Source of the DNA: Escherichia phage SECphi4
Strand: one strand, 5' to 3'
DNA: 44,569 nucleotides
Sequence record: MT331608
Part shown: positions 480 to 5,294 of the stretch, piece after piece
Layout of the letters: each line of letters starts with the position of its first letter
Numbering within the stretch: the first letter of the stretch is position 1
The notes under the pieces: model-generated
What the model was told of the DNA's origin: nothing
Database searches by the model: none
The model's input: the letters and a program-made list of their open reading frames with translations, nothing else
Translations under genes and position numbers: made by a program

Positions 480-509
480 ACTATAGTGCAACCAACCTAT
501 TGGTTGCAA
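480..509 (-). promoter_or_regulatory. Sigma70-like promoter (TTGCAA-N18-TATAGT) overlapping an inverted repeat TGCAACCAA/TTGGTTGCA
   Basis: -35 and -10 hexamers about 45 nt upstream of the ATG at 438; architecture recurs at 2384, 15227 and 25833. Confidence 0.45.
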
Positions 510-966
510 GTGAATTTTGCAACGTTTATTGCGTAAATTTTCGGAACCAGATCGCTGCACGCCCGACGAATTGCCGCGATGTTCTTCTCGCAATCTTCAA
601 TGATGACCAGTTCCGACACGTCCGCATAGCAGACCATTTTGAATACAGCGCACGCCTTAAACTCCGGCGGCGGGGTGTCGTCCAGCATGTGGCGCATAAA
701 CAACCGGCCTGTCGGGAATACTTCCAGTTGCTCGGCGGTAGTCTCCCAACATTCGCGCTGCAGGTTTGTCAGATACGCGATCTCGAAGCCTTGCTCTTTA
801 TACATGCTCAACAGCGGCAGCATATCCATGTTAAGGTCTTCGCGTACGTGCGATTTGTGCCACTTCGCCCAAAATGTTGATTTGGTTTTTATGCCGGGGA
901 CCAGTCGGCGCGCGCATCACTTGAACCATTAATAACACCATCCAGATCACAAATCAGTAGTTTCAT
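497..966 (-). pseudogene. HAD-superfamily 5'-nucleotidase-like gene split by a -1 frameshift (or sequencing indel)
   Basis: ATG at 964..966 encodes MKLLICDLDGVI (HAD motif I DxDG) and stops after 25 codons; the -1 frame is open from 916 to 497 and contains an LDD motif; frames overlap at a C4 run and GC repeat (892..916). Confidence 0.35.
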
Positions 967-1184
967 TTTAATTCCGCCATTAAATTTTCACGTACAATAC
1001 GGGACGAGAATGCGTCGCACACAAGATGGCAATGCGCCGTCATGACAAGCCAGCCAGTTAGGTCAAGGCCTAGCAATTGATGCGGTTGGCTTGCGCGCCT
1101 TACTTTATTTCCAGGGAAAACCTGGTAGCGTTTAATTATTTCATCCACGACGCGCGGACTGCGATCGACGACTAAGATATTCAT
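963..1184 (-). CDS. Hypothetical protein (73 aa)
   Basis: ATG at 1182..1184 preceded by GAAGGAG SD; overlaps the 3' end of the Dam-like gene. Confidence 0.45.
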   Translation of the reverse strand: MNILVVDRSPRVVDEIIKRYQVFPGNKVRRASQPHQLLGLDLTGWLVMTAHCHLVCDAFSSRIVRENLMAELK

Positions 1185-1650
1185 ATAATTCTCCTTCACT
1201 CATTATCTCGATTTGTGCGCTGCCGTTTGGCGGCACTTCTTCAAAGATTATCAATTGCTGACACTTGTTGTTACTCGGCCCGACCTTACCGGTGACGGCG
1301 TGTATAAACCGGATCCGCCAGTCCAGCAAAATGATCAGGTTGGCGGTTTGCCTTGCCAGTTTGGCCCACTTCGTGGTCGTATCTTGGTTGAGCAACATTA
1401 CCGTCTTACGCCCCTGCGATGCGCAAGTCACCCACGGCAGCGGGTCGGAATACGGCGGATTGCACCACTTCCACCCGTTTAACTCTGACCAGTCAGCATC
1501 AAGCGCGCTGTGCTCTTTCGTGAAATAGCGCGGTAGCAAATGGTTGTGGTCGCTCGCCGCCATGTCGTAGCGGAATTTAAACGCCTTGCGCAGCGGTTTA
1601 AATAAAGCTGGCGGCGTGCGCCAGCTATCTTTTTGCTCACTCTTCTGCAT
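1141..1650 (-). CDS. DNA N6-adenine methyltransferase (phage Dam family)
   Basis: WRTPPALF N-terminal motif and catalytic NPPY tetrapeptide in a 169-aa ORF. Confidence 0.85.
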   Translation of the reverse strand: MQKSEQKDSWRTPPALFKPLRKAFKFRYDMAASDHNHLLPRYFTKEHSALDADWSELNGWKWCNPPYSDPLPWVTCASQGRKTVMLLNQDTTTKWAKLARQTANLIILLDWRIRFIHAVTGKVGPSNNKCQQLIIFEEVPPNGSAQIEIMSEGELYEYLSRRSQSARRG

Positions 1651-2095
1651 GGTCGGTATCTATCGCATACAGGGCAATTTTCTTACCACTGTTTAGAACG
1701 CGTTGCAGGCGCTTTGCCCCCTCGACGCTAAGCGGTCGGCAATCGGAGTAGTAGCTGCCGTTTGCGCGCCACGCCATAAGCACCAGGTCTTTTCTGTCGA
1801 TCTTAGACTGGCGACCTTTGGGGCGCACGTACTCCTCGGCCCGTTTGCAATGCTCGCGCAGACCTTCGGCAGTGATGCGGTTTAGTGCAACGCTGGTTGT
1901 GTATCCGGTGCGCTGCATAATCCCCATCAATTTGAAAAGCAGTTCGAAACGCTCCTCTAGCTCCTTGCGGACCTTCTCTTCACCTTCATAGCTTGCAAGA
2001 TAGGTGTTAGCCAGCGCGGTAGCGCCTTCTGCTTTCTCGCGTGCTTCAAGACACTGCGCTACCCAGTACGCTTTTTCTTCTTGTAAAATTTTCAT
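1637..2095 (-). CDS. Hypothetical protein with C-terminal resolvase-like HTH
   Basis: 152-aa ORF with strong AAGGAG SD; C-terminal segment resembles Hin/resolvase HTH_7 pattern. Confidence 0.45.
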   Translation of the reverse strand: MKILQEEKAYWVAQCLEAREKAEGATALANTYLASYEGEEKVRKELEERFELLFKLMGIMQRTGYTTSVALNRITAEGLREHCKRAEEYVRPKGRQSKIDRKDLVLMAWRANGSYYSDCRPLSVEGAKRLQRVLNSGKKIALYAIDTDHAEE

Positions 2096-2337
2096 TAGTT
2101 AATCTCCTTCCTGCGAATTTCTTTGCGAGGTATAAATTTGCCGTCCATTTCAACCCAGCAAGTGCCATAGCGCCACTGGGTGTTACGACCTGTTAGCTCT
2201 GCGTAGACAATCCGGCATTCATATTTATCGAGGTTATACGTGCAGGAAATCGGCAGCAGGAGACAAAAGAATAAGAACAGCACCAAACACACCCAAAAAC
2301 GTAAATCACCGTCGTCGTCAAAAAAGAATCGTTTCAT
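2095..2337 (-). CDS. Small membrane protein
   Basis: 80-aa ORF with one hydrophobic helix (CLVLFLFFCLLLPI); GAGGA SD. Confidence 0.5.
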   Translation of the reverse strand: MKRFFFDDDGDLRFWVCLVLFLFFCLLLPISCTYNLDKYECRIVYAELTGRNTQWRYGTCWVEMDGKFIPRKEIRRKEIN

Positions 2338-2383
2338 TGTTAAATCCTCATATTAAAAAAGGGCGTTCCCTTCGGACACCCTC

Positions 2384-2412
2384 AATATAATGCAACCAAT
2401 CTAACTATGCAA
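2384..2412 (-). promoter_or_regulatory. Sigma70-like promoter (TTGCAT-N17-TATATT) with two direct ATTGGTTGCA copies
   Basis: Motif copies at 2391..2400 and 2408..2417 on the complementary strand, upstream of the gene starting at 2337. Confidence 0.45.
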
Positions 2413-2417
2413 CCAAT

Positions 2418-2741
2418 TTACGCATAAAAATTCGGGTCGCGCGCGACGTCTACCAGGTAAAGGTTGCTCATGCGGTTGCCGTAGTGCCCTGGTGTGCGCT
2501 GGCGGCACACAACGGCGAAGCCTGGGGGGATTGTATTGCCAGTCTCAATAATCCACGCCACGCGCGCCCCCGATAGAGTTTTGCCGTTGCATTCGATACG
2601 TGTGCCACCATCGGCAGTATTGATGTTGCCAATTTTGCAGCCGGTGGACTTCAGACGAATGACGCCGGTTTTGCTGTCGTAGGAAAAAAGCTGATTGGTC
2701 ATTGCCACTGAAAAGTCGATGGCGTCGAATGCAGTATTCAT
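2418..2741 (-). CDS. HNH-like protein with apparently degenerate catalytic residues
   Basis: 107-aa ORF resembling phage HNH_3 layout but with conserved His positions replaced; GAGGAAAA SD. Confidence 0.35.
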   Translation of the reverse strand: MNTAFDAIDFSVAMTNQLFSYDSKTGVIRLKSTGCKIGNINTADGGTRIECNGKTLSGARVAWIIETGNTIPPGFAVVCRQRTPGHYGNRMSNLYLVDVARDPNFYA

Positions 2742-3433
2742 TTTAAATTTTCCTCGTTAACCGCTATCGCGAAGCCGCACGGGGTGAGCGACCTGATTAA
2801 TTTGGTGTGGGCAGATTTGCCTCCGAGGCGACTATACTGCTTCGAGTACCCTTTTTCAACGAAAACAGGTTTCTTCTCTGGCATACGGAAGCCGTTGCCG
2901 GTCCATAAGCAGGTCAGCTTCGGATATGAATCGCGGGCGTTGATGTATTCCGGGAATAGCGGGTGTACGTCATCCTCCGGCAGATATCCGCCATACTCCC
3001 ACGGGTCAAACGAGTGGTCCGGCTTACGCCATTGAGTGGAGAGCACGCTGCGCGGATTCTCAATCATATATGGCACTTCAAAGAAATCACCCAGGTAAGC
3101 GGCGATCTTAGCGGTGCGCACCGCCTTAAGCTGGAAGGCAGGGTCGCGGGCGCGTTTGCGCGGGAAAGCGGGCGCGCCACTCACCGCCAGATCCGTACAC
3201 GGCGGGAATGCGTATATGATATCCGGCGTGCCGAAATCACCATTCATCGCGCGGTCCACGAAGTCCAGACCGATAAACTCATTACGATATCGAATGCCAC
3301 GACCATAGATCCGGTAGTCCAGGTACGACCCGTGATCGGCTCCGGAGTAGTTGAAGCAATAACACTTATGCCCCATCTCGGCAGCACGTTCAATCATCAA
3401 GCCGCTGCCGTCAAATAATGACCAGATAATCAT
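2738..3433 (-). CDS. DNA cytosine-C5 methyltransferase-like protein
   Basis: FDGSG (motif I-like), FPPC (motif IV-like, catalytic Cys) and ENP (motif VI-like) in a 231-aa ORF. Confidence 0.65.
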   Translation of the reverse strand: MIIWSLFDGSGLMIERAAEMGHKCYCFNYSGADHGSYLDYRIYGRGIRYRNEFIGLDFVDRAMNGDFGTPDIIYAFPPCTDLAVSGAPAFPRKRARDPAFQLKAVRTAKIAAYLGDFFEVPYMIENPRSVLSTQWRKPDHSFDPWEYGGYLPEDDVHPLFPEYINARDSYPKLTCLWTGNGFRMPEKKPVFVEKGYSKQYSRLGGKSAHTKLIRSLTPCGFAIAVNEENLK

Positions 3434-4854
3434 TTGCGCGCCTTTTTAGCTTTCATGTATTCCATTAAATCGTCCTGAATGTCTCGCTTACTGTCGCGAC
3501 GCTCCGCGACCAGTTCGTCCAGTGTGCCGCGCGCCTGGATAATGTAGACGAATACAGGACGAGGGTGTCCGGCTTGCATCTGGCGAACTGGCCCGATACG
3601 CTCCACGATCTGCGCAAAGTGCTCATAGTTCCAGGTGTCTGAGAAGATAGCAAGGTGGTGTCCGCCATCCTGCAAGTTAAGGCCGTGACCCGCCGATGCC
3701 GGGTGTGCGAACATGATGGGGATCTCGCCCCTGTTCCACGCTTCCATATCCTTATTGCCTTGCTTACCCTTACCCATCGCTACGCCGTGAGGGAATTTCT
3801 TCTTAAGACGTGCCAGATCATGCTTGTACTGGTATGCGACGAGCAACGGTGCTCCGTTCAACTCCTCCACGATACTTTCCAGCGCGTCCAGCTTAGCGTC
3901 GTGAATTTTAACCCATTCGTCGGTGCGCTCGCCGTCTTCGTCCACCTTATACACGGCCCCCGAAGCAAGCTGAAGGCACTTAATAGTCTTCGAAGCAGCG
4001 TTCGCCGCCTCCACCGTTCCGCTCTCCAGTTCGGCAAATAGCTCCGCTTCGAACTGGTCATAAATCTTGCGGGCTTTCTTCGGCAGGTCCACAACAACCG
4101 GCGTATAGATCGGCTTGTCACACCCGAAGTATTCAGCCGCGTCAACTGTTAGCGACACGTCGGACAGGCGTTGTTGGATTTCTTTCTCGGAGTTCTTAAG
4201 CGGGGCGTGCTGCATAGTGAAGCTGCCAGGCTTAACAGGCTTGCTAATAAACCAGCGATCAGTGAATGCCTTATAACTACTGCCGAGGCGTTCGCCCCCG
4301 TCGACAAACCACGTCTGGCCCCATAGGTCTTTCAGCCCGTTTGGTGCGGGGGTTCCTGTCAGGTTAATCCAGCGCTTGACGTGCTTATGTGCGATCGCAG
4401 CCAGCGCACGGGCGCGCTTACTCCCCTGCTTGCTTCGATAGCCTTTCAGCTTAGTCGATTCATCGGCAACCACGACCGTAAAGGGCCACTCGTCGCCGCA
4501 ATACTCGACGAGCCACTCAACCACATCATAGTTAACACAAACCACGTTAGCGTCGCTCTCAAGCGCAGCGATGCGGTCCTTCTCCGACCCGGTGCCGTCT
4601 ACTACCAGCAGGGCTGGGAAGCGCCATTTTTCCTGTTCCGGGGGCCATGTGCCAGATGCAACGCGCAGCGGGGCCAGCACCAGTACGCGGTCCTCCTGAT
4701 TGGACAGGATGCCGGTCTGGAACATTTTATTCAGCGCCCACATGGTCGCGCCAGTTTTACCCGACCCCATTGTCGCCCATATATTGCATCGCTTATGCTT
4801 GAGGATGAACGCGGTTATCAACTTCTGATATTCGCGACGTCGGAAACGTGCCAT
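3430..4854 (-). CDS. SNF2/DEAD-like helicase
   Basis: Walker A GSGKTG and DExx box VVADE; start set at the internal ATG (MARFRRREYQ) to avoid overlap with the upstream gene. Confidence 0.8.
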   Translation of the reverse strand: MARFRRREYQKLITAFILKHKRCNIWATMGSGKTGATMWALNKMFQTGILSNQEDRVLVLAPLRVASGTWPPEQEKWRFPALLVVDGTGSEKDRIAALESDANVVCVNYDVVEWLVEYCGDEWPFTVVVADESTKLKGYRSKQGSKRARALAAIAHKHVKRWINLTGTPAPNGLKDLWGQTWFVDGGERLGSSYKAFTDRWFISKPVKPGSFTMQHAPLKNSEKEIQQRLSDVSLTVDAAEYFGCDKPIYTPVVVDLPKKARKIYDQFEAELFAELESGTVEAANAASKTIKCLQLASGAVYKVDEDGERTDEWVKIHDAKLDALESIVEELNGAPLLVAYQYKHDLARLKKKFPHGVAMGKGKQGNKDMEAWNRGEIPIMFAHPASAGHGLNLQDGGHHLAIFSDTWNYEHFAQIVERIGPVRQMQAGHPRPVFVYIIQARGTLDELVAERRDSKRDIQDDLMEYMKAKKARK

Positions 4855-4858
4855 ATCT

Positions 4859-5077
4859 TTATTCCGCCTTTTTCCAGACTTCGGTTTCACTGTTCCAGTT
4901 CCTTTTTGTGGCGTCGTAGTTGGTGCTGTGCCCGATGTGTACACCCGTCGCCCGGAAGCTCTTAAATTTTTGCCAGCACACCGTCAACGGCAGCGGGTAA
5001 TTCATGCCAGCGATAAACCATACGCGATCGCCTGGTTTGCATTCGCCCAGTGTGGTGAGTCGGTAGTGTTCTTTCAT
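4859..5077 (-). CDS. Hypothetical protein
   Basis: ORF with GGGAGAC SD 8 nt before the ATG at 5075..5077. Confidence 0.45.
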   Translation of the reverse strand: MKEHYRLTTLGECKPGDRVWFIAGMNYPLPLTVCWQKFKSFRATGVHIGHSTNYDATKRNWNSETEVWKKAE

Positions 5078-5120: not shown

Positions 5121-5294
5121 TTATTTTTGCGCTGCGCGGTAGCGGCGCTGCCGTTCACGCTCTTTCTTATTGCGACACGATTTGCACTCGGCACGATACC
5201 CATCGGGGCTGCGCGCAGTTTTGCCGGTGTATTTGTGGAACTGGGATAGCGGCTTGACGCAACCGCAATTACTGCAACGTTTTTCTTCAATCAT
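5121..5294 (-). CDS. Small zinc-ribbon protein
   Basis: 57-aa ORF with CxxC...CxxC cysteine pairs; GAGGA SD. Confidence 0.45.
   Translation of the reverse strand: MIEEKRCSNCGCVKPLSQFHKYTGKTARSPDGYRAECKSCRNKKERERQRRYRAAQK

Follow-up and report, generated by a model that had tools for sequence, protein, structure and literature searches.

Probable orphan adenine and compact C5-cytosine DNA methyltransferases in a leftward gene block of Escherichia phage SECphi4

In phage K42, a relative of phage KarlJaspers in the family Drexlerviridae, disruption of a "dcm" gene of 711 bp was the route of escape from the retron Ec86 (Wang et al., bioRxiv 10.1101/2023.08.16.553469; in later citations, "DNA methylation activates retron Ec86 filaments"). 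Expression of K42 dcm was toxic in the presence of the retron and not otherwise, a high level of 5-methylcytosine (5mC) was found on the retron Ec86 multicopy single-stranded DNA (msDNA) by liquid chromatography coupled to mass spectrometry (LC-MS), and a C82A/E128A/K175A/K176A mutant of the enzyme was inactive (10.1101/2023.08.16.553469). Methylation by this enzyme carries a documented cost, as it is sensed by a bacterial defense and triggers retron Ec86/Eco1. Here, we describe a homologue of K42 Dcm in a stretch of 44,569 nucleotides (nt) from Escherichia phage SECphi4 (sequence record MT331608), referred to below as the window. The homologue is a compact C5-cytosine DNA methyltransferase (MTase) of 231 amino acids (aa), encoded at positions 2738 to 3433 on the minus strand and belonging to PHROG 757, the phage "Dcm-like" family. 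A gap of 1,087 bp separates it from the gene for a 169-aa Dam-family N6-adenine DNA methyltransferase (1141 to 1650, minus strand), in agreement with a preliminary description of the sequence that had placed two minus-strand methyltransferases about 1 kb apart.

We read the two genes as the standard orphan DNA methyltransferase pair of a Dhillonvirus, lying in a leftward replication-gene block with helicase, DNA polymerase, and nucleases, and we put the probability of this reading at roughly 85%. Both genes are already known, with Dam-like and Dcm-like annotations in some 150 related genomes; they are routine core genes of Dhillonvirus that are shared with related Drexlerviridae, and their presence here changes little. 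The corrective point is that the odd motifs of the cytosine enzyme mark a large compact C5 family, which for the window protein goes undetected by the curated models of Pfam and NCBIfam. The product of the homologue (5mC) and one consequence (triggering of retron Ec86/Eco1) are already published. The target sequence of this minimal and very common enzyme, and the way in which it reads DNA, matter for forecasts of how sensitive phages are to restriction, type IV nucleases, and retrons, e.g., in phage therapy host-range work.

Two methyltransferase genes and their genomic setting

The first 6 kb of the window matched 160 phage records, and in 146 of them 80% or more of the query is covered. The window is as long as a complete genome of the genus Dhillonvirus (the HK578/SSL-2009a group), to which nearly all of the matching records, from Escherichia phages, belong, with phage JLBYU37 of this genus as the top match (91.9% nucleotide identity). 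SECphi4 is accordingly classified here, by its similarity to these records, as a Dhillonvirus, whereas K42 is a KarlJaspers-like Warwickvirus of the Drexlerviridae. At a protein identity of at least 80%, the C5 gene was present in 152 records and the Dam gene in 157, and judged by these alignments both genes are core to Dhillonvirus. In the annotation of the relatives, the leftward replication block comprises DNA polymerase I, a VRR-NUC nuclease, a helicase, a "Dcm-like C5 cytosine methyltransferase," a "putative homing endonuclease," two hypothetical proteins, a "Dam-like N6-adenine methyltransferase," a small hypothetical protein, and a putative phosphatase. The upstream neighbor of the C5 gene in the window is an SNF2-type helicase gene (3430 to 4944, minus strand; Pfam SNF2-rel_dom, 3e-11; phrog_62, 3e-157), whose stop codon overlaps the start of the C5 gene by 4 nt, both genes being part of one leftward replication-gene block.

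The first of the two proposed enzymes, a minus-strand adenine methyltransferase of the Dam family with an NPPY motif, is borne out by the open reading frame (ORF) at 1141 to 1650 and by its match to Pfam PF05869 (E = 4.1e-37; 127.9 bits against a gathering cutoff of 28.1 bits), in which residues 3 to 139 of 169 align to profile positions 5 to 147. The NPPY catalytic motif occupies residues 64 to 67 (1450 to 1461, minus strand; …WKWCNPPYSD… in the translation), and the gene is annotated as Dam-like in the relatives. The protein also matched phrog_111 (9e-54) and NCBIfam TIGR01712 (5.8e-25), the latter at 87.7 bits, which is under the equivalog cutoff of 97.05 bits; by these scores it classifies as a member of the family, not as a certified TIGR01712 equivalog. 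This cutoff is also what sets it apart from the characterized small phage enzymes of the PF05869/TIGR01712 family (phage T1 Dam, Stx-phage M.EcoVT2Dam, and phage HP1 Dam), with which it shares the NPPY motif and a similar size. Its identity is 37% to Stx-phage Dam genes and 24 to 30% to Drexlerviridae Dam genes. The 169-aa enzyme would transfer the methyl group of S-adenosylmethionine (AdoMet) to the N6 of adenine through NPPY. Its target would most likely be GATC, the sequence that characterized PF05869 members methylate.

Both methyltransferases are orphans, as had been proposed, since no cognate restriction enzyme is found among their neighbors or in a fully annotated relative. Their neighborhood contains a helicase gene, an HNH-like ORF that is degenerate, and several small ORFs, with no cognate endonuclease of the kind that defines type II restriction-modification (RM). 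One complete, fully annotated relative Dhillonvirus genome has no annotated restriction enzyme, and the neighborhoods of the C5 genes in phages Tls, 9NA, Skenny, and Phi1 contain neither a restriction enzyme nor a conserved nuclease partner. The preliminary description was right that no restriction endonuclease is adjacent, but it overlooked the HNH-like ORF (2418 to 2741, minus strand; 107 aa), whose start overlaps the stop of the C5 gene by 4 nt. This ORF resembles homing endonucleases and matched an HNH-endonuclease PHROG (phrog_99, 1.4e-15), but no Pfam HNH model matched it even at E ≤ 10, and in alignment with the HNH_3 protein of Warwickvirus JK16 it has Val-Cys in the place of the catalytic Asp-His. 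It is probably a degenerate relic of a homing endonuclease, not a restriction enzyme. The ORF is kept across the genus, and its private changes in the window are six synonymous and none nonsynonymous, which suggests that it is still under constraint.

Could the C5 gene and the overlapping HNH-like gene together form a minimal RM system or a methylation-linked nuclease pair? The 4-nt overlap of stop and start suggests translational coupling, a distant member of the C5 family (P0269) is fused to an HNH_2 domain, and JK16 has its HNH_3 gene two genes downstream of the methyltransferase. However, the catalytic Asp-His is absent from the HNH-like ORF, which no Pfam HNH model matches, the linkage is not kept in Tls, Skenny, or Phi1 and amounts to only a 43-aa fragment in 9NA, and freestanding HNH genes are common in phage genomes. 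We consider a functional pair extremely unlikely and rejected it, as the ORF is degenerate and Tls, 9NA, Skenny, and Phi1 do not keep the two genes side by side.

For an orphan pair, the benefit would be that replicating phage DNA is methylated more quickly than by the host enzymes, or without relying on them; where hosts vary in Dam or Dcm status, such methylation would guard against methylation-sensitive restriction. Self-protection against host restriction, as the preliminary description had suggested, is plausible. The RM systems used in the BASEL study, discussed below, reportedly recognize neither GATC nor CCWGG, and that study would thus not be a direct test of such protection.

The compact C5-cytosine methyltransferase family

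The claim of a cytosine methyltransferase holds as well, given the ORF at 2738 to 3433 (minus strand), its match to phrog_757, and PF00145 matches among its relatives. Residues 1 to 229 of the 231-aa protein matched phrog_757 ("DNA methyltransferase") at 1.1e-79, and the motifs quoted in the preliminary description are all present (FDGSG, residues 7 to 11; AFPPCTD, residues 75 to 81; IENP, residues 124 to 127). Among 36 aligned family members, 21 matched PF00145 at E ≤ 1, and four of five members that were rescanned individually exceeded its gathering score of 22 bits (22.8 to 28.5 bits), the matches lying over motifs I to IV. The catalytic-domain fold of C5-cytosine DNA methyltransferases was recovered, with DNMT3B/3A as the closest structural match. 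We therefore classify the 231-aa window protein, on its homology and predicted fold, as a C5-METHYLTRANSFERASE.

The family is large, with 2,627 homologous clusters at 90% identity and 1,964 at 50% identity, and the listed members are mostly 200 to 260 aa long. Members occur in 1,510 phage records, and the share of sequenced phage genomes that carry one is about 3%. The window enzyme is roughly half as long as the Dcm of E. coli (M.EcoKDcm; 472 aa; CCWGG), and it differs from Dcm, M.HhaI, and M.HaeIII in having no large variable recognition domain, and in place of the PCQ and ENV of canonical PF00145 enzymes it has PCT and ENP. The likeness to the catalytic domains of mammalian DNMT3A and DNMT3B is structural, with only 12 to 17% identity and no evidence of direct ancestry; the DNMT3 enzymes are oligomers with regulatory domains, which the window enzyme lacks. 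Two family members outside the window are fusions, one of a compact C5 domain with a D12-class Dam domain (P0262; 563 aa) and the other with an HNH_2 nuclease domain (P0269; 348 aa). These isolated cases hint that methyltransferase-methyltransferase and methyltransferase-nuclease fusions arise occasionally in the family.

K42 Dcm belongs to the same compact family (about 231 to 236 aa; PHROG 757). We compared it through its orthologue in Warwickvirus JK16 and the published residue numbers. The JK16 gene is 711 bp long and its product is 236 aa, with Cys82, Glu128, Lys175, and Lys176 at exactly the numbers given for K42 Dcm, and in a full-length alignment this protein is 52% identical to that of the window. 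The cysteine, the glutamate, and the first lysine of the mutated quartet are shared (C82 corresponds to C79, E128 to E125, and K175 to K172), whereas the window enzyme has Leu173 for K176, as well as the changes D55G, R209H, and R219C, which are private to it. The position of K176 is a lysine in 150 of 239 family members, the set over which all conservation in the family was counted.

The proposal that a threonine after the catalytic cysteine and an ENP motif point to unusual chemistry did not hold, as both are nearly invariant across the family and the K42 homologue makes 5mC. Motif I (FDGSG; 3401 to 3415, minus strand) forms the AdoMet-binding loop after strand 1 (residues 2 to 6 in the model), and the PF00145 matches of the relatives start here. 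In motif IV (PPCT, residues 77 to 80; 3194 to 3205, minus strand), which hhalign sets against the PCQ of Dcm, Cys79 (codon 3197 to 3199) is the predicted catalytic nucleophile; conservation is 89% for P78, 97% for C79, and 93% for T80 (223/239). Motif VI (ENP, residues 125 to 127; 3053 to 3061, minus strand) lies at the end of strand 5 and is conserved at 98% (E125), 96% (N126), and 99% (P127; 237/239), so that the E-N of the E-N-V consensus is present, with proline as the third residue in all but two members. By this conservation, PPCT and ENP can be regarded as signatures of the compact family and not as peculiarities of the window phage. With the two motifs family-wide and the product of the homologue being 5mC, the oddity of the motifs gives no hint of unusual chemistry.

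On the canonical C5 mechanism, Cys79 would attack C6 of the flipped-out cytosine, Glu125 would protonate N3, and AdoMet would give its methyl group to C5, yielding 5mC. A different chemistry or substrate, such as cytosine carboxymethylation with carboxy-AdoMet or tRNA methylation of the DNMT2 kind, could be argued from the departure of every family member from the PCQ/ENV consensus. We find it highly improbable, as DNMT3A has PCN instead of PCQ and yet makes 5mC, and as K42 Dcm produced 5mC on DNA by LC-MS while the catalytic-site mutant did not. By its likeness to the K42 homologue, we infer that the window enzyme makes ordinary 5mC.

Target sequence, allele state, and alternative readings

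Several observations weigh against reading the genes as a standard, working pair. The 231-aa protein matched no Pfam family at E ≤ 1, PF00145 included, and no NCBIfam model, and the PDB sequences, searched with phmmer and with two family profiles of 36 and 90 sequences, yielded no significant match, M.HaeIII ranking first among the C5 methyltransferases at E = 0.94. The profile check on this protein as a DNA methyltransferase, proposed in the preliminary description, was therefore split, negative for the curated Pfam and NCBIfam models and positive for phrog_757 and for PF00145 among the relatives. The proposed motif alignment with a characterized C5 enzyme likewise succeeded in part: when the family profiles were aligned to E. 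coli Dcm with hhalign, PPCT fell on PCQ (E, 0.07 to 0.17), but motif IV alone aligned, with no complete mapping of motifs VIII to X and no residues given to motifs IX and X. The compact family is best classified, from these profile comparisons, as a divergent branch of the C5 methyltransferases, whose sequence profiles reach no solved C5 methyltransferase, and this divergence explains the missing Pfam match. A kinase, ToxD (7spq), recurred as a weak match over residues 143 to 197 (E, 0.07 to 1.5) and was taken as chance.

Further points of this kind concern function. The 163 GATC and 154 CCWGG sites in the window are neither depleted nor enriched relative to Markov expectation, and composition therefore gives no clue to the targets of the methyltransferases. 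In the related Drexlerviridae, the BASEL study found no simple link between the possession of methyltransferase genes and resistance to restriction, and it describes Dhillonvirus as much less RM resistant than Queuovirinae (PMC8594841). CCWGG was taken as the target of K42 Dcm from its name and from a CCTGG in the msDNA stem-loop, with no methylome mapped, and msDNA from dcm+ MG1655 with an empty vector had low 5mC (10.1101/2023.08.16.553469). The low msDNA 5mC in a dcm+ host is an awkward fit to a specificity identical to CCWGG. Finally, three private changes at conserved positions, described below, indicate that the window allele may be weakened.

The segment at the place of the target recognition domain is short and rich in proline and aromatic residues (residues 140 to 185; 2879 to 3016, minus strand), with an invariant YPK-T-LW, and is modeled with a pLDDT of 94 to 98. 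Where a large variable recognition domain would lie between motifs VIII and IX, the compact enzymes have about 45 conserved residues, and this conserved segment would read the target in its stead. The mean top-residue frequency of the segment is 0.66, compared with 0.75 to 0.77 in motifs IV and VI and 0.34 to 0.46 in helical segments. Recognition domains normally vary with specificity, and the conservation of the segment therefore argues for one target shared across the family. Our literature search found no mapped methylation motif or methylome for the C5 enzymes of Dhillonvirus, Drexlerviridae, or Webervirus.

It is possible, although doubtful, that the compact enzyme is a genuine 5mC DNA methyltransferase with a target other than CCWGG, i.e., a shorter or different motif shared by the whole family. 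The short segment at the recognition place, about as conserved as the catalytic motifs in 239 diverse members, fits such a target, as does the best structural match, DNMT3B/3A, enzymes whose recognition domains are the smallest and whose sole target is CpG. The assignment of CCWGG from a name and the lack of high msDNA 5mC from host Dcm in MG1655 point the same way, and the authors of the K42 preprint note that Dcm alone appears toxic in BL21 (10.1101/2023.08.16.553469). On the other side, a change of either C of the msDNA CCTGG abolished the defense (10.1101/2023.08.16.553469). Dhillonviruses and Drexlerviridae also plate on E. coli K-12, which has McrA, McrBC, and Mrr, so their methylation pattern must be tolerated, as CmCWGG would be. 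A more speculative proposal, which we think unlikely, is that the PPCT/ENP family may read a short or non-Dcm motif by a mode of DNA recognition unlike that of canonical C5 methyltransferases; its smaller version is that the window allele is naturally attenuated (R209H and R219C), having been selected to escape sensing. If the motif is not that of Dcm, the label "Dcm-like" is wrong, and the restriction systems that these phages evade and the defenses that see them (retron Eco1 and type IV nucleases) should be reexamined.

The private changes of the window allele raise the alternative that this copy of the C5 gene is weakened or inactive, selected, for example, because 5mC exposes the phage to a retron or a methylation-dependent nuclease, in which case only Dam would modify the genome. 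D55G (codon 3269 to 3271, minus strand), R209H (codon 2807 to 2809, CGC>CAC), and R219C (codon 2777 to 2779, CGC>TGC) are at positions that are invariant in 14 to 15 Dhillonvirus relatives. Both arginine changes are single transitions and fall in the C-terminal LGGKS-x-R-TK-x-IRSLTPRGF motif (2777 to 2809, minus strand). All 15 relatives have CGC or CGT arginine codons at positions 209 and 219, and across the family position 219 is an arginine in 197 of 239 members and position 209 an arginine or lysine in 178. The private synonymous-to-nonsynonymous ratio is 5:3 in the C5 gene, compared with 11:0 in the helicase gene, 6:0 in the HNH-like ORF, 7:1 in the Dam gene, and 34:3 in polA (P = 0.028 for an excess of nonsynonymous changes by a one-sided Fisher test). 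In K42, escapers of retron Ec86 had inactivated the C5 gene, which fits the same idea. However, the statistic is weak, with P rising to 0.06 when small neighboring genes are added, the ORF is intact with the catalytic motifs FDGSG, PPCT, ENP, WR, and YPK unchanged, and a 1-nt frameshift in a neighboring gene makes sequence errors possible. On balance, a weakened allele seems to us unlikely.

Neighboring small genes

Two ORFs are packed tightly between the methyltransferase genes (1637 to 2337, minus strand), one of 152 aa (1637 to 2095; phrog_10530) and one of 80 aa (2095 to 2337; phrog_18961). The match of the 152-aa ORF to phrog_10530 is strong (1.4e-92), and this PHROG is labeled "DNA ligase." The label is probably wrong, as 152 aa is too small for a ligase and Pfam gives no support. 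The private changes in this ORF are six nonsynonymous and five synonymous. Promoter and terminator scans yielded sites no more numerous than those in shuffled sequence, and we therefore claim no operon boundaries from them.

Downstream of the Dam gene, a gene for a HAD-type phosphatase or polynucleotide kinase-like protein (497 to 966, minus strand; 156 aa in the relatives) is frameshifted in the window. A 1-nt deletion near position 905 (GACCTGG>GACTGG) cuts the N-terminal DLDGV catalytic motif off the remaining protein, and the gene is either a pseudogene or the site of a sequencing error. Between the two genes, a 73-aa ORF (963 to 1184, minus strand; phrog_10685) shares 44 nt with the Dam gene at the 3′ end of the latter. 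It is the positional homologue of Ksap1 of Dhillonvirus SECphi18, with 50% identity, and its identity across the genus ranges from 42 to 97%, making it far more variable than the neighboring genes. Ksap1, a small protein whose gene lies between those for the methyltransferase and the phosphatase, activates the defense protein KpAvs2 (PMC11564622).

On the other side of the helicase gene, a small CxxC…CxxC zinc finger protein is encoded at about 5121 to 5291 (minus strand; 57 codons starting MIEEKRCSNCGC). It matched phrog_5558, a "Lar-like restriction alleviation protein" (9e-17), and it also matches the zinc finger parts of endonuclease VII and HNH PHROGs. The label is weak, and a second antirestriction function, suggested by the first of these matches, is possible.

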